From a virus, in IMG/VR virus record IMGVR_UViG_3300024346_000017, positions 1-64,000 of that record: a DNA stretch of 64,000 nt. One strand, given 5' to 3'. The notes under the pieces were generated by a model, which saw only the letters and a program-made list of their open reading frames with translations, did not search any database and had not been told where the DNA came from. How positions within the stretch are numbered: the first letter of the stretch is position 1; every line of letters begins with the position of its first letter. Position numbers and translations under genes: made by a program. Positions 1,716 through 33,105 of this stretch are shown piece by piece.

Positions 1716-1946
1716 TTGCTTAACTTGACAGAACTAGGAGTAGAGGTCTTTATAAAAAGATCTAATTCTAAAAATTTACAATCTTTTTGGAATAACTATT
1801 CTTTGGTAATTTGGAAAAAAAATAATTCTGGGTTCACAAATAAAAAAGGACTGTTCAAAAATGAATGGGGTATTGCAGAAGAATTTGCAATCAACGAAGA
1901 CGGACTATGGAAACTTCCATTACAATATGTCAAAAATTTTAAATAG
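1716..1946 (+). CDS. Hypothetical phage protein
   Basis: ORF with a purine-rich upstream element, in operon-like packing. Confidence 0.65.
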   Translation: MLNLTELGVEVFIKRSNSKNLQSFWNNYSLVIWKKNNSGFTNKKGLFKNEWGIAEEFAINEDGLWKLPLQYVKNFK

Positions 1947-2235
1947 TCTAGGTTTAGATAAAGATTCACTTCAATGGCAAGACTTAGCTCTTTGCCTTGG
2001 AATGGATACTAATCTGTTTTTTGATTCATATGAAGCAGATGTTAACATAGCCAAAAGCATAGATCAAGCTTGCATGTCATGTCCAGTTATAGCAATTTGT
2101 TACAAATACGGCACAGAGTCAGATAACTATGGAGTTTGGGGCGGAGTGTATTTAAGTTCTGGTACCCCAGATAAATCAAAAAATTCACACAAAACAAAAG
2201 AAACTAACAAGAAGCTAAAGGGATTACATGGCTAA
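1927..2235 (+). CDS. whiB: WhiB-family Fe-S transcription factor (ORF track 1861..2235; likely start 1927)
   Basis: WQDLALC...LFF...CMSCPVIAIC...YGVWGG: four Cys plus the GVWGG turn. Confidence 0.92.
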   Translation: MSKILNSLGLDKDSLQWQDLALCLGMDTNLFFDSYEADVNIAKSIDQACMSCPVIAICYKYGTESDNYGVWGGVYLSSGTPDKSKNSHKTKETNKKLKGLHG

Positions 2236-21466: not shown

Positions 21467-22048
21467 TCACCTGATCTGTAAAATAATAGGACATGCTATA
21501 TCTACACTAATAGCTGAGAATGATCCCTATACTGGACAGGTTTACCTATTTTGTAACAGATGCAAGGCATACTTGCCTAGCATGTACATAGAGTAATTTA
21601 AGTCCTAACTCCTATATCCCCCTCCCGTTTTCCTTGTCTCATATAGCCCTTAGAAGGCTTATATAGTGGAGTAAAGTGGAGCATAGTGGAGAATATATAC
21701 TATAGATTACCTATCATATACTATAGTTATATCTATTTAAACAATACTATGATATCGAGCATATCAGATCTTAACCCGTAATGTCAACAGGGGCATATGG
21801 ACTTATATGAGACATAGCGCATATTCCAGCGAATTTGTCAATAGGGTCGTAAATGGCATATTTGGCCCACATTGTCAACATATTTTGTATAACAATTTGA
21901 TATAAATTCTGACAGATTCTGGGTATATTATGCCTAATTCATTATATGTTTTATTAGATAATATATTCATTTTATTATATTCTCCTGAATATTCCAGGGA
22001 TTTTTTTAGCTTGGTCGTAAAAGAAAAATATTGCCCCCATGCCCACAC

Positions 22049-22092
22049 AAAAAAAGATATCCACAAGACCTGTGTAGATCCTGTGGATATCT
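22049..22092 (-). terminator. Intrinsic terminator closing the minus-strand block
   Basis: AGATATCCACA...TGTGGATATCT inverted repeat followed on the minus strand by a U-tract. Confidence 0.8.
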
Positions 22093-22116
22093 GGGGCTAT
22101 ATATGTTTATTTAATC

Positions 22117-22392
22117 CTATGCTGTGATAGGCTCAAAGTTCTCAATGTAATCATTTAGTCTATCTGCCATCATTAGTGCTTCTGATGTAGTGCCTTCTTC
22201 CCAAGCATTATCAAATTGTCCCGCCGTCTGTTTGATAATTTCTACAACCAGTTCCATTACCTTAGATTGAGTATAATATCCACAACCATTAACTAATTCT
22301 CTAGCCATGATAGTTGGATTAAACCAATGACTATCCATAGCCTCTAATACCTTCTCGGCTGCTTTTGTTTCTATTGAACTTGCCTTTGCCAT
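22117..22392 (-). CDS. Hypothetical protein
   Basis: GGAGG RBS, ORF. Confidence 0.75.
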   Translation of the reverse strand: MAKASSIETKAAEKVLEAMDSHWFNPTIMARELVNGCGYYTQSKVMELVVEIIKQTAGQFDNAWEEGTTSEALMMADRLNDYIENFEPITA

Positions 22393-22479
22393 TTCTTGCC
22401 TCCGCCCTCTAACTCTCGATTATACCAAAAATAAGAGACGGGGTCAAGGACCAACGATGCCCTAACCCCGTCCCAAGTT

Positions 22480-22629
22480 TTACTTCGCCTTCTTGACAGG
22501 TGCCTCTGCTGTAAATGTAACACCCTTTGCTGCTGCCTCTGCTAGAGCTACCTTGGCTGCTCCTGAGAAACGTCCGCGTACGCCTACTGTGATTCCCTGC
22601 TGCTTTAGATATTCACGCTTTGTTGTCAT
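22480..22629 (-). CDS. 49-aa Lsr2-like DNA-binding mini-protein (not in the ORF track)
   Basis: MTTKREYLKQQGITVGVRGRFSGAAKVALAEAAAKGVTFTAEAPVKKAK; own TTTACA-17-TATAAT promoter, AAAGGGG RBS and downstream hairpin. Confidence 0.75.
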   Translation of the reverse strand: MTTKREYLKQQGITVGVRGRFSGAAKVALAEAAAKGVTFTAEAPVKKAK

Positions 22630-22855
22630 TTGTTAATCCCCTTTCAAGAGATAGTTGTTTTATTAATTATAGCAACTTTTCACGGAATTGTAAATAGTTA
22701 CCGTAAGCCATTTTTCCTGCCCTTAAATTTGATCTGTCTGCTCTACTCTATCTTTAATTAGTTTAGAGATTATATTATGTGCTTCAATATTCTCAGTTTC
22801 AGATCCACCCCACAAAAGCTTTTGGGCTTTGTTTAACTGATCATTAATATAGTTG

Positions 22856-23194
22856 TCACTCATCCTCATCTTCGTCTTCCTCCTCTTCTTCTTCAAACAT
22901 TGTGTCTACAATGTATTCACGATTCATCATCCATTCAAGGACGTCATCATTGTGCTGTTCCGCCCCGTATTCCAGGGAGAAGCCCATACCAGCCTCCACG
23001 GCCTCACAGAGGTGGTCCCACATGTCGTCTATGGTGCAGTTCTGCTTGTAGGTCTCATCCTCAAAGATGTTGTTAATTGTGGACCATGTCCACAGCCATA
23101 CTAGCGACAGGCCAAGGTCGGTGCTGTCGAGAATCTTTAAACATTCGTTTAGTTTATCTTTATCTTCAGGCTTCATTACGTGCTCCAATCGCAA
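22856..23194 (-). CDS. Acidic hypothetical protein
   Basis: ORF with poly-E/D tail. Confidence 0.7.
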   Translation of the reverse strand: MRLEHVMKPEDKDKLNECLKILDSTDLGLSLVWLWTWSTINNIFEDETYKQNCTIDDMWDHLCEAVEAGMGFSLEYGAEQHNDDVLEWMMNREYIVDTMFEEEEEEDEDEDE

Positions 23195-23462
23195 ATGATA
23201 GTTGATAGGTTAGTTGGTACAGTTCGACCAACATATCTAGTCGTCCCTCTGCATTTGTACGGTCCATAGAATCCATTGCTTCTTCGGTTTCTTCCTCCCG
23301 TGCAATTGCGTCAGCAAGTTCCTGCTCTGCAATTAGCATTAGGTTTTTTAGTTCCCCGTGCATTATATCTAATCCAGTAACACCTGCGTCCACCATACGT
23401 TGAAGGTGAGGCGGGAGTTCAAGAGATTCTTTATCAGTAAACATATCATCAGATATTGTCAT
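23166..23462 (-). CDS. Hypothetical protein
   Basis: TGTCAG promoter and AACGAAAGG RBS upstream. Confidence 0.75.
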   Translation of the reverse strand: MTISDDMFTDKESLELPPHLQRMVDAGVTGLDIMHGELKNLMLIAEQELADAIAREEETEEAMDSMDRTNAEGRLDMLVELYQLTYQLSFAIGARNEA

Positions 23463-23671
23463 TCATATACCCTTTCGTTAGAGTTATTCATTATATCAGT
23501 AGCCACTGACAATAAATGTTCGGTTGCTTCAATTGCTCCTTGGAAGTAATCATCTGAAGGGTCATATTCATCATCCTTCAAAGGCTCTCCATTTTTAGTA
23601 GCCTCCCAATCTTGATTAAGACTAATTAGATGTAACTTCATATACTCTAGAAATACTGATGATTTAGTCAT
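23459..23671 (-). CDS. Hypothetical protein
   Basis: TGTCAG promoter and GGAG RBS upstream. Confidence 0.7.
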   Translation of the reverse strand: MTKSSVFLEYMKLHLISLNQDWEATKNGEPLKDDEYDPSDDYFQGAIEATEHLLSVATDIMNNSNERVYE

Positions 23672-23955
23672 AGTAATATTCTCCCGTTTCTCTATTGAAA
23701 TATCTTACCATAGAGCACTGACAAGTAAAAATTCCAGGGACATCTGAACACTCCCAGTAATGCTGACATTTAGCCCCCATCAGTCAAAATACCCTTCTGC
23801 CCATAGTCCTTGAAGAAAGTCATTTGTCTTTAACAAAGCATCAACTAAGAGGTCCTTGTCTATTTGTTCCACACCTGAATTTAAGATGTAAAACAATTTA
23901 GCATCGTGCACGGCATTAATCATTTGATCTAAATCTTCTTTAGTATAACCTAGCA

Positions 23956-24186
23956 TTATAGTTCCTCATTCCATTCTAAGTAGTATTGGTCACCTGGATT
24001 TAAATCATAGAATAGATTAAATCTACCCTTTAAATAATTACTATCTGACATTTCTGCAAATCTAAAATCTGCATATAGTTGGCCTTCATCTAAATTAGCA
24101 TTAACCCAATCTTCAACAAGCATTGCTCCTATCTCAGAATATGTCATATCAATTACCATTTCATTTTCATTCTCTAGAAAACTCAT
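23956..24186 (-). CDS. Acidic hypothetical protein
   Basis: ORF overlapping the upstream stop. Confidence 0.7.
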   Translation of the reverse strand: MSFLENENEMVIDMTYSEIGAMLVEDWVNANLDEGQLYADFRFAEMSDSNYLKGRFNLFYDLNPGDQYYLEWNEEL

Positions 24187-24923
24187 TCGGTTCCCACCTT
24201 TCTATATTCGGGTACTTTAGTTTCTAAGTATATAGCATGGGTCTGACATTTTGCTACCGCCTCTAGGTCTGCCTCTCCTAGCCAATTGCAGTTGCCACAG
24301 ATTTCACCGCATTCTTCTTCTTCACAGTATTCCATTTGGTTAATGGCATCACAATCACGACATTGATTGTCGTATTCTGATTCTGAGATAATTTCTCCAC
24401 GAAGCATCTCTAACTCCCCACCCCAGCCTGTCTCTTCCTCATATGATAAAGTAAATAGTAATGTTGGGTATTGTGCAGATAGTTTAAGTAAAGCATTTAT
24501 TGGACGAGACCAAGCAGTATTAAAGTTATAGTGGACTACATAGTTCTCGCCGTTCTCGGCTTCCTCAATAGTTGTATCAGGATATTCATTACCCTCTGCT
24601 ACAGCAACATCCCATTTAGTGCTCCACTCACGGACATTAAAGTTGTACCAGTCATTGGTTTCAAACTTCATTGCCTCAGAAAAGTCGGTGGAACGAGGAG
24701 GCTGTCCATGATAGACCTCATCAGTAATACCAGCATCTCTATAGTTATAGATATTATGAAAAGCAAAGATAGGATTAACATACTTAGTCTGCTTGACTGA
24801 ATATGCTAAATCACCTGTAGGTGTAATAGAATAAACAAATGGCTTATTCATCTGCTTGATTAGAGATTTAACTTGCTCAGGATTTCCCTCGATAGTCAAA
24901 CCATTAAATACCCAATTTGGCAT
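24183..24923 (-). CDS. DUF1281/Api92-like ferredoxin-fold protein with Cys-rich tail (start MPNW)
   Basis: MPNWVFNGLTIEG...DWYNFNVREWSTKWDV...FNTAWSRP...LSYEEE; RBS AACGAAAGG. Confidence 0.72.
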   Translation of the reverse strand: MPNWVFNGLTIEGNPEQVKSLIKQMNKPFVYSITPTGDLAYSVKQTKYVNPIFAFHNIYNYRDAGITDEVYHGQPPRSTDFSEAMKFETNDWYNFNVREWSTKWDVAVAEGNEYPDTTIEEAENGENYVVHYNFNTAWSRPINALLKLSAQYPTLLFTLSYEEETGWGGELEMLRGEIISESEYDNQCRDCDAINQMEYCEEEECGEICGNCNWLGEADLEAVAKCQTHAIYLETKVPEYRKVGTE

Positions 24924-25208
24924 TTTATATCCTTTCGTTGATATGTTCCAATTATACAATGGACCACTGACATATGGAATGGTTTATGGGTGTGTTTCAC
25001 ACCACATTTTCCAGCTATGTGGTCAAGATCACAAAATTCCAGGCGATTTGCTATTGACACCGTAAAAGAAATATATTACCCTTATTTTTTGCGGGCCAGC
25101 TGCATATTTGTCAAGTTATGAAGGCTGCTAGAGGTTCACCAACGAAAGTAAAAGAACTCTGCTTTATTTAACCCCTGGCCTGCGAAGACTGTTAGGGGCA
25201 CCCTGTGT

Positions 25209-25613
25209 TTAATCTATTAGTATTAGTTCCTGTGCATATTTTGTTACAAATGAATCAAGACTCATTACAAACAGTGGCTCATCTTGGACGCCTCGAATTT
25301 TATTCTCATCGCTAAATGTGGCCTCTTCATGAAGACTAAATTCACCTTTAGAAAAGTTAATGATAGGAATCTTGTGCTCATTATCTGAACGTTGGTTAAC
25401 TTGCATTCCCCAACCTGTTTCGCTGGTCCACTCATCTTTAATTAGATTAGAGATAGCAATCCGCGTTGCATATGATTCGTCATCCCACCTAGGACGAGCC
25501 TTGTCTACAGCACGTGCTAGCAGGTCCAGCATGCCGCCACCAGCCCAGTGTCCATATACTACAATTGTATTGCCATTAGATTGTGTAAATCCAAAGTTTG
25601 CACGGTCTCCCAT
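25209..25613 (-). CDS. Hypothetical phage protein (MGDRA...YGHW type)
   Basis: ORF. Confidence 0.75.
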   Translation of the reverse strand: MGDRANFGFTQSNGNTIVVYGHWAGGGMLDLLARAVDKARPRWDDESYATRIAISNLIKDEWTSETGWGMQVNQRSDNEHKIPIINFSKGEFSLHEEATFSDENKIRGVQDEPLFVMSLDSFVTKYAQELILID

Positions 25614-25615
25614 GT

Positions 25616-25813
25616 TTATTCCGCCATTTCTACTAGTTGAGGTGTTTCTTCCTTTTTGTTTAATTCTATCACTTCGTAAGCAATCTTGTCAAGACTAGGT
25701 TTGAACTTATTAAAGTGGTGGCCACAGAAAGCAAGCTCTCCACTAACCATCTTAACAAGATACATTGCAGGTACTACTGAATTACATTTATCGCAGCCTA
25801 TCCATTCACTCAT
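25616..25813 (-). CDS. Small Zn-binding protein
   Basis: CDKC...LAFCGHH. Confidence 0.7.
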   Translation of the reverse strand: MSEWIGCDKCNSVVPAMYLVKMVSGELAFCGHHFNKFKPSLDKIAYEVIELNKKEETPQLVEMAE

Positions 25814-25964
25814 AGCGCACCGCCTTCAATCATGTCAGATAATCGATCAAGAATCCAAGAGTCGATATCATTAATATCAATCTCTGATAACTTCTCCATT
25901 AATTCTTCACGAGCAAATTTATACCCGTCATCAAAACCATCTCTGTAATCTGACATTATATCTC

Positions 25965-26168
25965 CTAGTATCCTGTAACTTTGCTGTCGCTAACATAAGA
26001 TTCAATTAAGTTATACTTATCACGAATCCTACTTACTTTCTCAATACTACCAGTTCCAATGTTGAAAGTCAATGCAGACATTGCTTCGGGGTCTAGCCCA
26101 GTTATCTCTGCATCCCAATAGGCTCTCTCCATGGAGAGCCTATCAGGAGCGGTAAGTTCAAAGTACAT
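25965..26168 (-). CDS. Hypothetical protein
   Basis: ORF coupled to the upstream stop. Confidence 0.7.
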   Translation of the reverse strand: MYFELTAPDRLSMERAYWDAEITGLDPEAMSALTFNIGTGSIEKVSRIRDKYNLIESYVSDSKVTGY

Positions 26169-26830
26169 TAGTTCTCACGAACATTACATACTTCAGTGTC
26201 AACAATTTCAATGTTGCCATTTTGTGAATCAACATATAGGTTGTCGTAGATTTCTTGTTCTACATCTGTATCTGAATCAGCAAGTAAATCTAATTGAATA
26301 GTACCGCTAACCTCAATTGTTGCAGACCACTCAACATCTCGTGTCAAAGCAATGTCAAGCGCTTCAGCAATTGAGCGAAGAGTTTCTTGGTCATCTGAAT
26401 CGGCATATGCTTCAGTAATAATATCTCTGACTGTGTCAATTTGAGATAGCAAGGTGGTCACACGCTTTTGTGATTGGCGCCCATTGTGTAGGTCCCATTC
26501 AATACTGGTAACCTTATCAGTTGCATATTCTGCATCTGAATATCCACGAATAACTTTATATGTTACTAATAGATTAGAGTTGTATGACTCAGGGATTGGT
26601 GTTGTTGTTACTGTTGATTCTTCCATTGGTTCCTCTTTCGTTTGGGTTGAAGGTGCAATTGTAGCATGCTCCACTGACACTAATGTGGTCTTGCGTCCAC
26701 ACGGGCATGTGAGTTCTGTCACACCTGAAGGAAAACCAAATCCATCAGATGATGTTAGTTCTATTAGGCAATCGCATTCATCTGGGTCACAGACAAATGT
26801 ATATTTACTTGATACTAGTTCGTTGGTCAT
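26168..26830 (-). CDS. Hypothetical protein with N-terminal Zn-ribbon; leaderless start 26830, second in-frame start 26626
   Basis: The ORF-track extension to 26995 runs through tRNA-Asp; TACAAT lies 7 nt before ATG 26830. Confidence 0.7.
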   Translation of the reverse strand: MTNELVSSKYTFVCDPDECDCLIELTSSDGFGFPSGVTELTCPCGRKTTLVSVEHATIAPSTQTKEEPMEESTVTTTPIPESYNSNLLVTYKVIRGYSDAEYATDKVTSIEWDLHNGRQSQKRVTTLLSQIDTVRDIITEAYADSDDQETLRSIAEALDIALTRDVEWSATIEVSGTIQLDLLADSDTDVEQEIYDNLYVDSQNGNIEIVDTEVCNVREN

Positions 26831-26936
26831 AAAGAGAATTGTACCAGGTCCCACTGACAACTGTCTATAGATTTCAGGGGATTTTTTATGTGACCCGTAA
26901 CACAAGATTTGACCCCGCACCTTTGCGGGCATTTTG

Positions 26937-27010
26937 CGATCTGTAACGGACTTGAACCGTCGACCTCTACCGTGACAGGGTAGCGCTCTAACCAACTGAG
27001 CTAACAGACC
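26937..27010 (-). tRNA. tRNA-Asp(GUC)
   Basis: Minus strand GGTCTGT...CTACC-CTGTCAC-GGTAG...GGTTCAAGTCC...ACAGATC-G. Confidence 0.93.
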
Positions 27011-27021
27011 AAGAAAAAAAT

Positions 27022-27051
27022 TGTGAGCAGTTTTTATTCATGCTCAGGAAT
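27022..27051 (-). ncRNA. Putative compact H-type pseudoknot, copy 1
   Basis: AUUC-CUGAGCAU-GAAU-AAAAA-CUGCUCACA. Confidence 0.55.
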
Positions 27052-27059
27052 TTATTTAT

Positions 27060-28067
27060 TTAGAAAGCAGAAACCAATTTCTTGATTTTGTTTTTCTCAG
27101 CAGTTAGAATTGGGTCAAAGCCTGATGCACCAGCCATTAGTGTTTCAGCATTGCCACGTGATGAACGATAATAATCTAGGCGTTCAGTAAGCGCATTAAA
27201 TGCACCCCATTTTGTGCCCTTGATATTAGCATTAGTTGGTGAGTTATGATAAAGGTCATCAAGAAGAACAACCTTATTTTCCCACTTAGTAAGAGCAACC
27301 TTTGCTGCATCCTTATCTGGCTTAGGATAAATTGTCTGAATCAACTTAGAGAATTCAGCATCGGTGATTGCTTGTGAGTAAAGCGCCTTTGCTTCAACTT
27401 CGAATTCATCAAAGTATCCAAGAGCAAGACCGAGAGTCTCACGAGCAACGGCAATGCGACCTTCAACAGATTGCGTGTGACGAATCTTGAATGATTGCTT
27501 AGCATTACGCATTGCAAGATTCAAAGTGTTTTGGCATACAACACGAACAGGGGTAACGGCTGCTTGAACGGCAACTGAACCATCGTGAGATGTCCATACG
27601 ATTAAATAGAGTTTAGTTTCATCGTTGGCGCCTTGTGGGTCAAGAACCATTGTGCGAGGAATATCAACAGTACCGAATACAACTTTGCCCTTCTTAAGAG
27701 AACCAGCAGATTCCCAACGGCAATCAGCGTTTGCATCATGAATTGCATCCGCAAAAGCGAATAGTTCTTCATTCTGCACAGGCTTGTAGCGCTTACCAAC
27801 AGTGGCAAGAACATCGGTGCCCTTGTTGAATGGGTTGTCACGAATGACAAGAGATGCGGTAGATACATCATTCCAAGATTCTGGAATATGCTCAGTGATA
27901 GGAGACAAGCGAACATTCCAATTGGAAAGTTTTGCTTCGTCTAGCATCGTTTGTGTTGTGACTTCCTCATCTTGTGTAAAGATTCGGTTTGCAAGGTTGT
28001 GCCATGCAGGTGCGCCACGTAGAGCGAAAGCAACTTCGCCGTTTTCGGTTTCGAGATTATGAGCCAT
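27060..28067 (-). CDS. DUF932 (phage/plasmid TIGR03299-like) protein
   Basis: MAHNLE...PAWH...YKPVQNEELF...ESAGSL..G..VF...TSHDGS...TPVRVVCQNTL...IRHT...GTKWGAFNALTE. Confidence 0.88.
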   Translation of the reverse strand: MAHNLETENGEVAFALRGAPAWHNLANRIFTQDEEVTTQTMLDEAKLSNWNVRLSPITEHIPESWNDVSTASLVIRDNPFNKGTDVLATVGKRYKPVQNEELFAFADAIHDANADCRWESAGSLKKGKVVFGTVDIPRTMVLDPQGANDETKLYLIVWTSHDGSVAVQAAVTPVRVVCQNTLNLAMRNAKQSFKIRHTQSVEGRIAVARETLGLALGYFDEFEVEAKALYSQAITDAEFSKLIQTIYPKPDKDAAKVALTKWENKVVLLDDLYHNSPTNANIKGTKWGAFNALTERLDYYRSSRGNAETLMAGASGFDPILTAEKNKIKKLVSAF

Positions 28068-28283
28068 TATTTTTTACCTTTCGTTTGATTAGTTGTAAGT
28101 ATAACATCTGGCACTGACATTGTCTAGGATTAGATACAATATGTCCGAATTGATCCATGTGAGTAATCTCACAAAATTCCTGGCGTTTTCCACAGGCCCT
28201 CTTAAACCTGTGGATAACCCCGCACCTATGCGGGCATCTCAAATAATAAGATGGGGCGGGATCAAGATCCAGCCCCAAACCTA

Positions 28284-28517
28284 TTACTTATTTACTATTA
28301 AAGACTTTACGTAATTAACTGTCTCCATAGGAAAGAATGCTGCAGATGTTTTCTTCTTATTCTTTTGGTCATAAACAAAAGCTTTAACGTTTCCGTCAAA
28401 CTTTTTTAGATTAGAGAATACTAATTCCTTTAGGCTTTCATTATCATAGCCTTCATCTGAGTACATCGTTAAATCATTTGCTTTTACTTCATCGTACATT
28501 TCAATCTTGAAACGCAT
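28284..28517 (-). CDS. Hypothetical protein
   Basis: ORF, AAAGG RBS. Confidence 0.7.
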   Translation of the reverse strand: MRFKIEMYDEVKANDLTMYSDEGYDNESLKELVFSNLKKFDGNVKAFVYDQKNKKKTSAAFFPMETVNYVKSLIVNK

Positions 28518-28550
28518 TGTGTTGCCTTTGTTAGTAGGGACACCCGAAGG

Positions 28551-28580
28551 TGTGAGCAGTTTGGCGACTTACTCAGGTCG
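28551..28580 (-). ncRNA. Putative compact H-type pseudoknot, copy 2
   Basis: CGAC-CUGAGUAA-GUCG-CCAAA-CUGCUCACA. Confidence 0.55.
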
Positions 28581-28614
28581 TTCGCAATTTATCGTTATGC
28601 GAGAACGATTTTAT

Positions 28615-29037
28615 TTAGAGATAACGAGCAACCGCATTGTAAGTGCTTGTGCTAACTACTTCCTCATCTGTCATTTTTAGAATACGAATAGCATTAGAGA
28701 TTTCCTCTTTCTGCTCACGATAAGTATGAACATGAAGTGTCTCAAAGTCCTTCTCAGGCTCTTTAGGCAAATCCTTTTCTAATACTGTCAAGTCAAAGTC
28801 AATGTTTAGGTTGTTTGACCATGAACGATAGTTAGTACGGAAGTTTTCTGCCTTCTTGATGTTAGCAATAGCGTAGTCTTGCACTTCTTTCTGCCAAACC
28901 TTACGCAACTTTTCGTACTTTGCTTCGTTTGCTTCTTGTGAAGCGTAGTCTGACTCTAGTTTTGCTAGTGCAGTTTCTAGTGCCTTGATTACCTTTGGTG
29001 TTGCTATCTTTACTGAGATTGCTTTTTGTCGTGCCAT
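28615..29037 (-). CDS. Hypothetical phage protein
   Basis: TGTCAG-type promoter plus AACGAAAG RBS. Confidence 0.8.
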   Translation of the reverse strand: MARQKAISVKIATPKVIKALETALAKLESDYASQEANEAKYEKLRKVWQKEVQDYAIANIKKAENFRTNYRSWSNNLNIDFDLTVLEKDLPKEPEKDFETLHVHTYREQKEEISNAIRILKMTDEEVVSTSTYNAVARYL

Positions 29038-29197
29038 TTATTTTCTCTCTTTCGTTGGTTGGTTGATTAGTATAGCAGGGGGGTCTGACATTTTCCCCGA
29101 AGGGAGAGAGTTCTTACTTACGACATTGGACTAGAACACTCTCTGAAACTGTCCCTGTTTCGTGGCTTAGCACCCTGTTAAGGTGTGTGCCTCCGTC

Positions 29198-29380
29198 TTA
29201 TGCGCCTATTAGGGCTGAGTCGCTAACTGTTGTCCAACGAGTTTCCTTTGTTGGCATTTCTAGTAGCACTCGCACCGAGCCAGATGCGTTAGGAATAATC
29301 TCTTTGATTACTCCTGTCTTTTTTGACTTTAGGGTGGTGAATAAATCGCCAACCTTGTAAGTGTATCCATTTACTGTCAT
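29198..29380 (-). CDS. Small SH3/KOW-like protein
   Basis: YKVGDL...TGVIKEI...VRVLL beta pattern. Confidence 0.6.
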   Translation of the reverse strand: MTVNGYTYKVGDLFTTLKSKKTGVIKEIIPNASGSVRVLLEMPTKETRWTTVSDSALIGA

Positions 29381-29473
29381 TTTGCTTCCTTTCTGTTTAG
29401 GGTCTTATTGTAGCATTGGGGTATGACATTCGTCTAGCCCTATCTCACCATGTGAGAATGTTATTGTGTGACC

Positions 29474-29743
29474 TTAGTCACTTTCAGGTAGCCAAAACTC
29501 TAGGTGGTGTTGTTCGATAATAGCGGAGGCAGGTGCAAATTTTTCTCCACGATACGACACGCCTTCAGGCATTGCGATTAGTTTATTATAATCCTCATCA
29601 TAGTATGCATCAATAGCATCAATGCAAGGTTGTACCATAGATAGCGGAACGGGTGGATAGTGATTACCCTGTAAGTGATAGGCTAATTGTGTTTCTAAAT
29701 CTAACACGCTATCTTGAATACCTAGTGCAGTTACGCTTCCCAT
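29474..29743 (-). CDS. Hypothetical protein
   Basis: HLQGNHYPPVP...HHL. Confidence 0.75.
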   Translation of the reverse strand: MGSVTALGIQDSVLDLETQLAYHLQGNHYPPVPLSMVQPCIDAIDAYYDEDYNKLIAMPEGVSYRGEKFAPASAIIEQHHLEFWLPESD

Positions 29744-29946
29744 TAGTTAGCAACCTTTAGAATAGCGTATGAGCCATTTTTGTTAATTTCATCAAGAATT
29801 GGTTGTAAGCGAGAGCCTACCAAATCTTTTAGCATGCCTTCAAGCATTGTAATACGCATTGACTCATCAAGTGCCATTACCTGTGCAGTTATTGGGTGTC
29901 CGTCTGCAAACTCTGTTACAAACTTTAGACTATGTTCTACTATCAT
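29743..29946 (-). CDS. Hypothetical protein (likely start MIVEHS)
   Basis: AACGAAAGG RBS. Confidence 0.7.
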   Translation of the reverse strand: MIVEHSLKFVTEFADGHPITAQVMALDESMRITMLEGMLKDLVGSRLQPILDEINKNGSYAILKVAN

Positions 29947-30327
29947 TTTTTGCCTTTCGTTGGTTGGATAAGAGTATTTTAGCATACCCCACTGACATTA
30001 CCTAATCCATTCACGCATAAGTTTTGTGATAAACCTCACAAAATTCCAGGGTGATTTTGATCACACCCGTAACGACACGCCCGACCCCGCAGCTATGTGC
30101 GGGATTTTGGCAACTTGTCAAGTCGAAACGCTTTTATAAATTAGAAAAAATATAATAAACAAGAGCAAAAGGCAAGAGGGCCAATCCGATAGCAACTACT
30201 CCACCAAGTGCACCAATTAGATCATAGATCATTTTTCCCCTTGTGTTTTATTTTACGTGTGTACTTTTTTTTATTGCGAACAGGTTGCGCCGCATTGCTA
30301 CGGCGCAATTCCTGAATGCGTTTAACT

Positions 30328-30519
30328 TTATCTCGAAGAGAGGTTTGGAACATGATAACCACACGCCTCATGAAATTTATTCACGTTAAAGTTTGGATTT
30401 TCTTTTGCAAAAATTAACGCAAAATCATTAACCATTTTAGAAAAAACAGCAGGATGAGTTTTATCGCTAGCGAACTTTAGAATTTCTGCAGTTGCCTCGA
30501 AGTGCTTTCGTGTCATCAT
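30328..30519 (-). CDS. Hypothetical phage protein (MTRKHF...NPNF...KF..AC type)
   Basis: ORF. Confidence 0.7.
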   Translation of the reverse strand: MMTRKHFEATAEILKFASDKTHPAVFSKMVNDFALIFAKENPNFNVNKFHEACGYHVPNLSSR

Positions 30520-30719
30520 TTTACGGATACCATTCCTGTTCTATAAAATACCTTTGTGTACATTTTGCCAGTTGGCGTCATTATATTTACAGTTGAGAAA
30601 TCGTTAGCCATTCCCCAATCGGTGAACAAGAAAAAGTTTTCCCATGCACCAAATTCGTTTTCGTAGTCGGCAGACCAATGCGGAGCATTGCCGTCATAAG
30701 CGCAGGTTATTTTATACAT
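30516..30719 (-). CDS. Hypothetical protein
   Basis: ORF, GGAAGG RBS. Confidence 0.7.
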   Translation of the reverse strand: MYKITCAYDGNAPHWSADYENEFGAWENFFLFTDWGMANDFSTVNIMTPTGKMYTKVFYRTGMVSVK

Positions 30720-31093
30720 TATCGCCTTCCCATTCTAGCGTTACACATTCGCATTTTGTGATTTCAATTGTGTTTCCAAATTGTGAAACAGTTGCGAGAG
30801 TATCGCAATTATCACAAATGAAAACGCCTTCAAGTACATCAAATAGATTTCCCATTTACATTCCTTCTTTCGTTGTTTCGGTAATTGTAGCAGATAGCAC
30901 TGACAAGGCTTCTGCCTTGCTTGCTTGGCGTGTTGCTAATACATGCGCCTTGAATTCATCTAGGTTCATTCGAACGCTCCTTCTTCTAGTAGTCCTAATT
31001 CAATGTTGAACAATTCATCGGGTGTTGCTTCGGATAAATCTACCCAGCCAGCACCTTCGTTATCCATTCGGAAAATTTCGATGTATCCCATTA

Positions 31094-31300
31094 TTATTCA
31101 CCAACCTTTACTGCGATTGTTGCGAATTTATTTTGCAGACCGCCAGCACGAACCTCGATTAGATAGGCTTCAGTTTTTTCGCCATAGTAAATTTCTGGGC
31201 GATGTTCAGCAGAAACAATTTCGCCTGAAAAGTGGCGAGAGTTTGAGCGATAGTTTTTTCCTACAAGTAGGCTTTCGATTGTGTAGAGTTTGGTAGCCAT
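31094..31300 (-). CDS. Hypothetical protein (likely start MATKLY)
   Basis: TGTCAG promoter and AACGAAAGAAGG RBS. Confidence 0.7.
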   Translation of the reverse strand: MATKLYTIESLLVGKNYRSNSRHFSGEIVSAEHRPEIYYGEKTEAYLIEVRAGGLQNKFATIAVKVGE

Positions 31301-31589
31301 TGGCAGACCTTCTTTCGTTGTTGTTATAGTAGACATTATACACGAAAGCACTGACAAAAAATAATTACTAGCCAGTAAGTCCATGATGTGAGACGCTCAA
31401 GCCGTGTGATAGTAATCACATTTATCATGTGGACGACACGCCCGAGATCTGTGGATAACCCTGTCAAATCGACACGCCGCAAAATTCGGGGGATTTTATA
31501 ACGACTTCATAACGACACGCCCGACCCCGCACCAGTGTGGGGGTGACGCCCTGAATTGTCAAGGCGACACGCCGTTTATTTATTGTGAG

Positions 31590-31787
31590 TTACGTCTCAT
31601 CTTCTATCTCTGCTAGATAGTCCTCATGCTCTACTAGCCCAATCGCAAACGCTACGGGATCGCAACATTCTAGAATTTCGGCGGGGGTGAATGTAGAGTA
31701 GCCGATTTTTACTGTAGGATAAACATCATTAAGTAAATCTATAAAGCTTTCTTTAATTTCTAAATCTTTTTCTAATTGTGATTTCAT
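31590..31787 (-). CDS. Acidic hypothetical protein
   Basis: ORF. Confidence 0.7.
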   Translation of the reverse strand: MKSQLEKDLEIKESFIDLLNDVYPTVKIGYSTFTPAEILECCDPVAFAIGLVEHEDYLAEIEDET

Positions 31788-31893
31788 TTAGTTAATTCTC
31801 TCATTTCTTCTAGAAAGTCATGCCATACAATGCGCCCCATGTAGAGGGCGGGTACTACAAGGGCTAATTGCACTAGGGTAGTTAGTAGTCTAT

Positions 31894-32085
31894 TCATTTA
31901 GTCATCCAATCATCATCATTGTTAAAGCCGATAGGGGCTACTTGCTTATTACTCTTTATCTTATTGTATACCTTAGCACCGACAAGAATAACGGCGGTCA
32001 AGATGATAAACGCCCATGATAGGGATAGATAGATAAAGTCGCCCATGTCGAACATGAAGCCGTATTCATTTAGTTCAATAGTCAT
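31894..32085 (-). CDS. Small membrane protein
   Basis: Single TM segment, GGAG RBS. Confidence 0.65.
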   Translation of the reverse strand: MTIELNEYGFMFDMGDFIYLSLSWAFIILTAVILVGAKVYNKIKSNKQVAPIGFNNDDDWMTK

Positions 32086-32277
32086 TTACTTATCTCCGAA
32101 CATGTTAAAGACTTCGTCTAGTTGCTCATCTGTTAAGTGGTCAATCTGTATAGCCTTAGAGAAGCCTAATACATCATCTTCATCATTATCTAGTGCCTTA
32201 TTGTATTCTTCTTCTTCATCTAGGTGAATGTATGCGTCTGATACATCTGCCTGTATAGTGTCCCATTTAGTCATCAT
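32086..32277 (-). CDS. Very acidic small protein
   Basis: D/E-rich ORF. Confidence 0.65.
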   Translation of the reverse strand: MMTKWDTIQADVSDAYIHLDEEEEYNKALDNDEDDVLGFSKAIQIDHLTDEQLDEVFNMFGDK

Positions 32278-33105
32278 TAGTTCTGTTCTACCTTTCGCAT
32301 GTGTGCTACAACATTTTTAGAAACCTTTTGTAGGTCTGCTACAACCTTATTCATTTCGTCTGCGCTATTAGCGGTAAAGCCTGCGCCTAGTAGTTGAGCG
32401 CCGTCCCATAGTGAGTATGTGATTGTCATTGTCTGTTCTTCTTTCGTTAGTTGGTTATAGTTGGAATTATAGCGGATAGGTCGGACATTATCAAGACGAC
32501 ACGCCGTAGCATGTGCCCTATGCGGTGTGAGTTACCTCACACACGCACTCTATGCAATAGCAAGCCTTGCTAGAGAGTAGGTCACGCAATAGAGCCTTGC
32601 GTGTGTAGGCATTTAGTCCATAGGAGGACTTTACGCCTCCGTTATGAAACTCATGGACGATAGTGGAGTATAACTCCTCGGTTAGCATAGTCATTATTTG
32701 ACCGCCTTTCTTGAACAATTTTCTTTATGTACGAAACAAGCGTATTCGCACTCTGAGCAGATACTATCTGCAAGACGCTCACGGATTTGTGAGTAACTCT
32801 CTAGAGAGTTTCTATTTTCATGGATTGAGTTCATTTGAACTCCTTTCTTGTTAATCACCTTGATTAACTTTCTTTATACTTTAAGCATAACAGGGGGGAC
32901 TGACAAATAGAGCCATTACTGACCAGTATTAAAATAAATCTTTGTGATGCTCATCACATTCACGCTCAAGGTCATTTATCTATGTGCGGACTATGCAGAC
33001 AAAACGGACATTTCAAATACGTGTATCGTACATATTAAAAATTTATTAACATTTTATGAAATCTCAAATCGCAGTTGACTAAATTTATAATGCTATACTT
33101 TTAAC

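Follow-up and report, generated by a model that had tools for sequence, protein, structure and literature searches.

Seven copies of one 9-mer at the head of a small-gene block

The window analyzed here is the first 64 kb of a complete viral record of 113,108 bp (IMG/VR record IMGVR_UViG_3300024346_000017; 37.8% G+C), which is taken as a freshwater actinobacterial phage. A block of small genes runs along its minus strand from about 22000 to 32900, and the upstream third of this block is occupied by seven exact copies of the 9-mer CGACACGCC (Table 1), which we call boxes. The original prediction had pointed to seven such copies, all in one orientation and four of them within 140 bp, as sites of the actinobacterial regulator WhiA in a phage that also encodes WhiB. 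We re-found them exactly: 7/7 lie on the plus strand, and four are packed into 31434-31573. The expected number is 0.04, and dinucleotide-preserving shuffles gave one copy at most. A count over the whole genome, which had been suggested as a check, turned up no copy beyond these seven, all of them inside 3 kb. Six of the seven are intergenic, the copy at 29555 sits in an open reading frame (ORF), and three have G as the next base. Since the nearby genes are on the minus strand, a box reads GGCGTGTCG along transcription. The single orientation is a property of this genome and not a general trait, because relatives have the box both ways.

The box is identical to the published WhiA motif

In a 2026 study of M. 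tuberculosis, the 8-mer GACACGCC was the primary WhiA motif in chromatin immunoprecipitation sequencing (ChIP-seq; 48% of 149 peaks), the sole motif in IDAP-seq with recombinant M. tuberculosis WhiA, and was recovered also by WhiB2 ChIP-seq (PMC13473873). The same paper cites an earlier ChIP-seq study, in which CGACACGCCGn was the top WhiA motif, and gives cGACACGc for M. smegmatis WhiB2. Compared with the extended mycobacterial consensus, the phage 9-mer is identical at 9/9 positions. The asymmetric GACAC core is present in 7/7 boxes.

In the cryo-electron microscopy structure from S. venezuelae, the C-terminal helix-turn-helix of WhiA reads GACAC, sigma-bound WhiB bridges to WhiA, and the motif's GACA is recognized just as that of TTGACA is (PMC10243135). 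Streptomyces WhiA is a monomer on DNA (PMC3781837), and in natural targets its motif occurs on either strand at a variable spacing to the -35 (PMC10243135; PMC3781837). The placement of the phage boxes is of this kind: 6/7 are intergenic, one stands at -46 to -38 of a complete promoter, and both orientations are found in relatives. In vitro, the promoters of M. tuberculosis dnaE1, ftsZ and dnaB give next to no transcription with bare holoenzyme, and WhiA plus WhiB2 activates them strongly; ribosomal genes of M. tuberculosis are likewise activated by WhiA. Judged from the sequence, the boxes are probably binding sites of the host WhiA. A full-text literature search found no paper on WhiA sites in phage genomes.

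The sole other GACACGCC 8-mer of the genome lies beyond the window at 90473-90480 (L089:6473-6480), within the end of an ORF and 47 nt ahead of the start of a dnaB-like helicase gene. This copy may be meaningless, as about one is expected by chance; dnaB is a WhiA/WhiB2 target in M. tuberculosis.

The box is conserved and under selection in other phages

Conservation in related phages, another check proposed at the outset, was clear. The DUF932 protein next to the boxes has 281 relatives in IMG/VR, and among 80 fetched loci nearly all that are long enough hold the 9-mer at the homologous place, where it frequently occurs both ways. The genes separating the boxes are much less conserved (median identities 48-89%). 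Five further complete genomes of 110-117 kb hold every copy within the same few kb, and the box number ranges from 1 to 12 across complete relatives. A megablast search of the region against GenBank phages gave zero matches.

The selection test was anchored on TTGACA alone and ignored the box. For 1094 distinct TTGACA contexts, the 9-mer standing 2 nt before TTGACA was compared with GGCGTGTCG. It matched exactly in 178 contexts, with one mismatch in 25 and with two in 7, against 6-8 mismatches for the random bulk. This profile shows that all nine positions are under purifying selection.

A pattern scan found the box also in phages without nucleotide similarity to this one. One of them, an unrelated 97-kb phage with 50% G+C (record G006), has twelve boxes in a single orientation within 7 kb. 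In G006, CCTGTGAGTTT stands at a fixed distance before 4 of five boxes inspected (e.g. L126:820-960), and three of these boxes are followed by TAGnnT 25 nt on and then by a gene start. The layout of G006 reads as a second, independent promoter design on the same box.

Position of the boxes relative to promoters

We surveyed 161 loci with about 530 distinct box contexts. In 66/535 of these, a -10 hexamer lies 24-25 nt past the box, which places the box at about -46 to -38; most are PafBC-type promoters, whose consensus is tGTCgg-N10-tAnnnT and in which a -26 element replaces the -35 (PMC8635444). The distance from box to TAnnnT shows a sharp peak at 25 nt (50 contexts), with 16 more at 24 nt. 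In 49 distinct contexts the box precedes GTC-N12-TAnnnT by 7-9 nt (mostly 9), and a ribosome site and start codon follow in 43/49. Whether the interval holds a -35, a -26 element or neither, the box centre at complete promoters is near -42, which fits the need of an activator touching the polymerase via sigma-bound WhiB.

The window holds one such promoter, behind the box at 32497. Along the minus strand, the order is box, tc, TTGATA, a, TGTCCG, ten nt, TATAAT, the ribosome site AACGAAAGAAG and an ATG at 32429. It is the top sigma-70-like site in the region (11/12), and its TGTCCG-N10-TATAAT fits the PafBC consensus.

The commonest context is of another kind, with TTGAYA exactly 2 nt past the box in 211/528 contexts at a base rate of 0.0009 per position. 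Here the typical order is the stop codon of the preceding gene, the box-NN-TTGACA unit, a covarying GC-rich hairpin, and then a second box or a consensus DnaA box. In the window, the boxes at 31565 and 31470 and a decayed copy at 30116-30132 are of the box-NN-TTGACA class, those at 31513 and 30073 are post-hairpin boxes, and the one at 32497 is promoter-proximal. The box at 29555 is probably incidental because it recurs in the closest relative only. The four-box cluster, which is accompanied by a DnaA box and a CRP-type palindrome, lies 77-210 bp upstream of the PafBC-type promoter that comes next. The cluster may work as a loading array, as several activator-dependent promoters whose -10s are unusual, or as a place for docking or a decoy.

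Other layouts occur among the relatives, namely a reversed box 17 nt above a -26 element, tandem triple boxes that repeat every 9-10 bp, and inverted boxes around two DnaA boxes. Three further explanations of the contexts were rejected. Post-hairpin boxes are not PafBC-type promoters, the spacing to TATAAA being 11 or 13 nt and not 10. Rightward promoters opposite the box-TTGACA units have no -10 at any allowed spacing. A nut-like RNA element made of box and hairpin is ruled out by unconserved loops, by 4/7 boxes being hairpin-free, and by the conservation of both box orientations.

Table 1. Features of the window discussed in the text; boxes read GGCGTGTCG on the strand given
Feature	Position	Strand	Remarks
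Promoter TTGACA-N17-TATAAT and tRNA-Leu (anticodon TAA)	1573-1700 (tRNA 1616-1700)		Upstream of whiB
Phage whiB	1927-2235	+	Pfam Whib E = 7.8e-11; possible longer form from 1861
Promoter octamer TGTCAGTG	23511, 23723, 24972, 26679, 26859, 28119, 29997, 30905, 31356	-	TGTCAG-N10-TAnnnT
Element TTTTCCACA	28186-28194		Beside the DnaA box at 28209-28217
WhiA-type box (seventh exact copy)	29555-29563	-	Inside an 89-aa ORF (29474-29743, minus strand), reading PEGVSYRG
WhiA-type box	30073-30081	-	Just past hairpin 30086-30103; next come a palindrome-like site and, at 29997, a PafBC-type promoter
Decayed box-NN-TTGACA unit	30116-30132	-	AGCGTTTCG (two mismatches), ac, TTGACA; AGCGTTTCG recurs among near-matches of relatives
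PafBC-type promoter	31335-31356	-	TGTCAGTG, 8 nt, TATAAT; below the four-box cluster; drives gene starting near 31300
TGTGA-N6-TCACA palindrome, CRP/GlxR-type	31405-31420		One of six in the genome
WhiA-type box	31434-31442	-	CRP-type palindrome 13 nt further
Consensus DnaA box TTATCCACA	31450-31458	-	Flanked by two WhiA-type boxes
WhiA-type box	31470-31478	-	Then at, TTGACA 31467-31462
WhiA-type box	31513-31521	-	Just past hairpin; conserved GTTATAAAA 12 nt on; in relatives a DnaA box (TTATCCACA) can stand in this slot instead
GC-rich hairpin	31525-31543		Between TTGACA and next box; stem covaries in relatives, loop variable
WhiA-type box	31565-31573	-	Right after stop of 65-aa gene (31590-31787); then cc, TTGACA 31562-31557; no -10 at 16-18 nt past TTGACA
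Promoter behind the 32497 box	32466-32494	-	TTGATA 32494-32489; PafBC-like -26 TGTCCG 32487-32482; TATAAT 32471-32466
WhiA-type box	32497-32505	-	2 nt before -35 hexamer; about -46 to -38 of complete promoter
Further promoter element TGTCAGT	32905	-	Leftward block

The phage WhiB and its link to the boxes

The whiB gene named in the original prediction does encode a Wbl protein, as its Pfam match confirms (Table 1). Since a canonical TTGACA-N17-TATAAT promoter lies ahead of it, the host polymerase can probably express whiB unaided. Against the Protein Data Bank the protein matches WhiB3 (6e-8) and S. venezuelae WhiB (2.6e-7), which does not fix its subclass. A search of the phage for a WhiA homologue found none.

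The co-occurrence of whiB and boxes was counted both among whiB-carrying records and among box-bearing phages. All complete box-bearing phages examined encode a WhiB; these include 3/3 that are unrelated, whose WhiBs form a single subfamily with the present one. Conversely, 13/13 records at least 90% complete with this WhiB subfamily carry the 9-mer, which numbers 83 copies in all (reversed control, 2) and is clustered within a few kb in every case. A predicted complex between the phage WhiB and an actinobacterial WhiA, cut to residues 1-250, scored 0.00, which is evidence neither way. As a query in the search for the host, the phage WhiB retrieved mostly phage contigs binned into unrelated metagenome-assembled genomes (MAGs).

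The same composite stands at bacterial promoters

The bacterial search set comprised 401 actinobacterial genomes, all from the class to which an Aquiluna MAG belongs. In these the composite GGCGTGTCG-NN-TTGACA is found 22 times, against 2 for the reversed control. Among twelve of the places that were inspected, rRNA-operon promoters account for two, and rpmH-rnpA promoters next to the dnaA region for four. Three of the twelve hold an inverted pair with a second GACACGCC, for instance GGCGTGTCG, two nt, TTGACACGCC (L227, L228, L230). Such pairs suggest that the TTGACA adjoining a box can be a second WhiA-type half-site and not a -35.

Sites were fetched from six complete streamlined genomes. 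Their 9-mers are at syntenic positions, one at the ruvB/secD junction and three intergenic, namely ahead of a PIN-PhoH gene (box, 25 nt, TATCTT), in the hflX/DUF4193 gap, and upstream of rpsL. In five of these genomes that were searched, WhiA is about 80% identical to S. venezuelae WhiA. It keeps R266, L274, K287, R293 and R295, which are all five of the DNA-contact residues tested by mutagenesis. Across WhiA proteins the C-terminal domain hardly varies.

Proposed mode of action and competing explanations

These results suggest that early genes of the phage are wired into the host WhiA/WhiB switch. Host WhiA, as a monomer, would read the GACAC of the boxes through its C-terminal helix-turn-helix and would activate jointly with a WhiB docked on domain 4 of the main sigma factor. 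Consensus WhiA sites in the early control region would thereby put phage promoters under WhiA/WhiB control, and the phage WhiB, made from a canonical host-type promoter, would probably supply or replace the WhiB partner. We give about an even chance to this full model, in which host WhiA co-activates early promoters with a WhiB that is probably encoded by the phage. A more far-reaching version is tentative and, in our view, rather doubtful. In that version the phage WhiB would be a sigma appropriator with host WhiA as its DNA-reading arm, so that the main polymerase would be redirected to box-marked DNA and WhiA drawn off the division, replication and ribosome genes of the host; the interleaved DnaA, CRP-type and PafBC-type elements would then act as a sensor of the cell-cycle, nutritional and DNA-damage state of the host.

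Several observations weigh against co-activation. A complete promoter stands at 1/7 boxes of the window and at about 12% of distinct contexts in the family. A -10 is found at 16-18 nt in 12% of box-NN-TTGACA units, compared with 29% of box-free TTGACA, and therefore most of these units are not ordinary promoters. The geometry also differs from that of the solved sepX complex, since the GACAC core in the phage is inverted and 3 bp from the -35, whereas in sepX a 7-bp minor groove contacted by WhiB lies between the two. Furthermore, most basic residues in the loop through which S. venezuelae WhiB contacts DNA are missing from the phage WhiB. In 28 streamlined genomes of 1.0-1.5 Mb, the 9-mer occurs 2-11 times each, with no excess over the reversed control; copies at conserved sites alone carried information. 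Finally, Streptomyces WhiA represses about as often as it activates, regardless of motif orientation (PMC3781837). The original prediction is partly supported, and its WhiA reading has much more behind it than was at first visible. The whole 9-mer, beyond the GACAC core that had first been noticed, is the published motif; placement, orientation and spread fit, and whiB co-occurs, but most box contexts in the phage family are unlike ordinary promoters.

A rival possibility is that host WhiA binds the boxes as a repressor, roadblock or boundary element and not as a co-activator. WhiA could then restrain the early block, or act where transcription units end, in concert with the hairpins next to the boxes. 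The commonest context, in which a stop codon, box, NN, TTGACA and covarying hairpin follow one another without a -10, would suit such a role, as would the frequent repression in Streptomyces and the suggestion from M. tuberculosis that WhiA represses by simple promoter occlusion (PMC13473873). Nevertheless, the 49 contexts at a fixed 7-9 nt from complete PafBC-type promoters resemble the geometry of an activator, and the same composite occurs at bacterial rRNA and rpmH promoters, with ribosomal genes being activated by WhiA in M. tuberculosis. We consider a purely negative or boundary role unlikely.

The original prediction had also raised titration. As decoys, boxes on replicated phage DNA would soak up WhiA, or WhiA-WhiB-polymerase complexes, and silence the division and replication genes of the host. 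Seven consensus sites lie in 3 kb, against 2-11 copies per streamlined actinobacterial genome searched (n=28), some relatives have tandem triple boxes, and the many box-TTGACA units without a -10 would allow docking without initiation. However, exact promoter spacing is superfluous for a sponge, the box count in complete relatives goes down to a single copy and up to 12, and the fixed-order interleaving with DnaA, CRP-type and PafBC-type elements resembles regulatory logic. A decoy function is accordingly quite improbable as the main explanation.

Still less credible is a reader encoded by the phage, for which the likeness to the WhiA motif would be mimicry or coincidence. Conservation of all nine positions goes beyond the 5-nt core known in Streptomyces, and the phage has many small early proteins of no known family. 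One 53-aa frame at 102484-102573 of the genome (L340) weakly resembles sigma-70 region 4 (E = 0.003, which misses the family cut-off) and may encode a small helix-turn-helix protein. On the other hand, an extended motif of 8-9 nt is what WhiA itself picks in vitro, the 9-mer is conserved at bacterial promoters and in phages without nucleotide similarity, and no WhiA-like phage protein was found. No DNA-binding domain came up when 20 proteins around the boxes were scanned with Pfam. The weakest proposal, that the boxes are iterons of a replication origin also employing host DnaA, can draw on the frequent DnaA boxes nearby (38% of contexts), the inverted boxes around DnaA pairs, the exchange of DnaA box and box at one slot, and a phage that has DnaB, DnaG, a Pol III alpha subunit and RecA with no initiator among the proteins scanned, but it is very unlikely, given the irregular spacing (36, 43 and 52 bp), the scatter of boxes across several gaps in 3 kb, the lack of a Rep-type gene among the 20 scanned proteins, the position of 4 of five inspected G006 boxes upstream of genes with no DnaA boxes found in the stretch examined, and a motif that WhiA already explains.

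Comparison with known systems

The closest parallels to the co-activation model are sepX of S. venezuelae and dnaB, dnaE1 and ftsZ of M. tuberculosis. The phage sites share with them the GACAC core and the full GACACGCC of mycobacteria, and, as at WhiA/WhiB co-activated promoters, the motif lies above a core promoter in either orientation, a WhiB is available, and the main sigma factor is involved. Unlike sepX-type promoters, the phage sites are viral, clustered (7 in 3 kb) and all of exact consensus, and the WhiB belongs to a phage-specific subfamily.

The LexA/RecA-independent promoter P1 of M. tuberculosis recA, which depends on PafBC, has a WhiA peak 42 bp upstream (PMC13473873). A WhiA site near -42, a -26 element and a -10 with no need for a -35 form a layout that is matched by the 32497 promoter and by 49 distinct promoters of related phages. 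recA differs in having several motifs and two promoters, and the paper left open which one WhiA serves (PMC13473873). In the phages, by contrast, the layout recurs, and the genes it drives are small early ones of no known function.

In T4, AsiA sits on sigma domain 4 and its DNA-reading partner MotA binds a site replacing or adjoining the -35. Both T4 proteins are phage-encoded and the MotA box is phage-specific, whereas here the DNA would be read by a host protein at a host motif, so the comparison is a functional analogy only. The analogy to T4 sigma appropriation has been drawn by the authors of the Wbl and PafBC papers (the latter PMC8635444). L5-type stoperators are ruled out as a model, since the boxes are confined to 3 kb of 113 kb and relatives have both orientations.

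WhiB-like genes are among the commonest regulators of actinobacterial phages. The WhiB of mycobacteriophage TM4 reportedly interferes with host WhiB2, and this phage Wbl protein may act on the WhiB2/WhiA division pathway of the host. The TM4 work concerned an effect on the host and is not known to have described WhiA sites within TM4 DNA; what is reported here are cis elements in a phage. Recent work showed that some phage WhiB-like proteins bind sigma domain 4. Our analysis supplies the DNA side of a phage WhiB: one WhiB subfamily is paired with clusters of exact WhiA motifs, partly at a fixed promoter distance. It also extends the WhiA motif of 8-9 nt from mycobacteria to low-GC planktonic actinobacteria and their viruses, and reveals that WhiA sites are repeatedly paired with PafBC-type promoters, DnaA boxes and CRP-type sites. 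If the sigma-appropriator version were true, it would provide a general function for the very common WhiB genes of actinobacterial phages.

Other elements of the region

The promoter octamer TGTCAGTG had been noted for carrying GACA on the same strand as the boxes. GACA is indeed present on the plus strand, but the octamer is better read as the -26 element of PafBC-type promoters: a GTC at about -26 is found in the TGTCAG-N10-TAnnnT of nine sites in the leftward block, as in the TGTCCG promoter behind the 32497 box. Promoters of this kind drive the leftward block as a whole, and a conserved AACGAAAGG leader follows each of them. As the TGTCAG promoters fit the PafBC consensus, the early genes may answer to the DNA-damage activator of the host, which is triggered by single-stranded DNA. 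In one class of box units in relatives, AAATCGGACAT, the reverse complement of a TGTCCG element, recurs after TTGACA.

Perfect 16-nt palindromes of the form TGTGA-N6-TCACA, the CRP/GlxR type, number six (26708, 28158, 30025, 31405, 32526 and 32943). They are all that the 113-kb genome has, against 0.1 expected; they are confined to 26708-32958 and adjoin promoters and WhiA-type boxes. Among the contexts of relatives, 41% have such a palindrome within 60 nt upstream or 80 nt downstream of the box.

Consensus DnaA boxes (TTATCCACA) are found in the genome only at 31450-31458 and 28209-28217, both intergenic in the leftward block, and in the family a DnaA box lies at most 80 nt from a box in 38% of distinct contexts. 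They could mark a DnaA-dependent origin or DnaA-regulated transcription. The GC-rich hairpins at 30086-30103 and 31525-31543 have counterparts in many relatives (e.g. CCCGCA, six nt, TGCGGG) with a covarying stem and a varying loop; the hairpin always stands about 11 nt past box-NN-TTGACA, with no consistent T-run on either strand.

Contigs of four freshwater RNA libraries span the region, including 31480-31784; they show its presence only and are uninformative on transcript start or strand. Near-identical sequence is present in runs of 17 studies, and relatives of the phage are numerous in IMG/VR.

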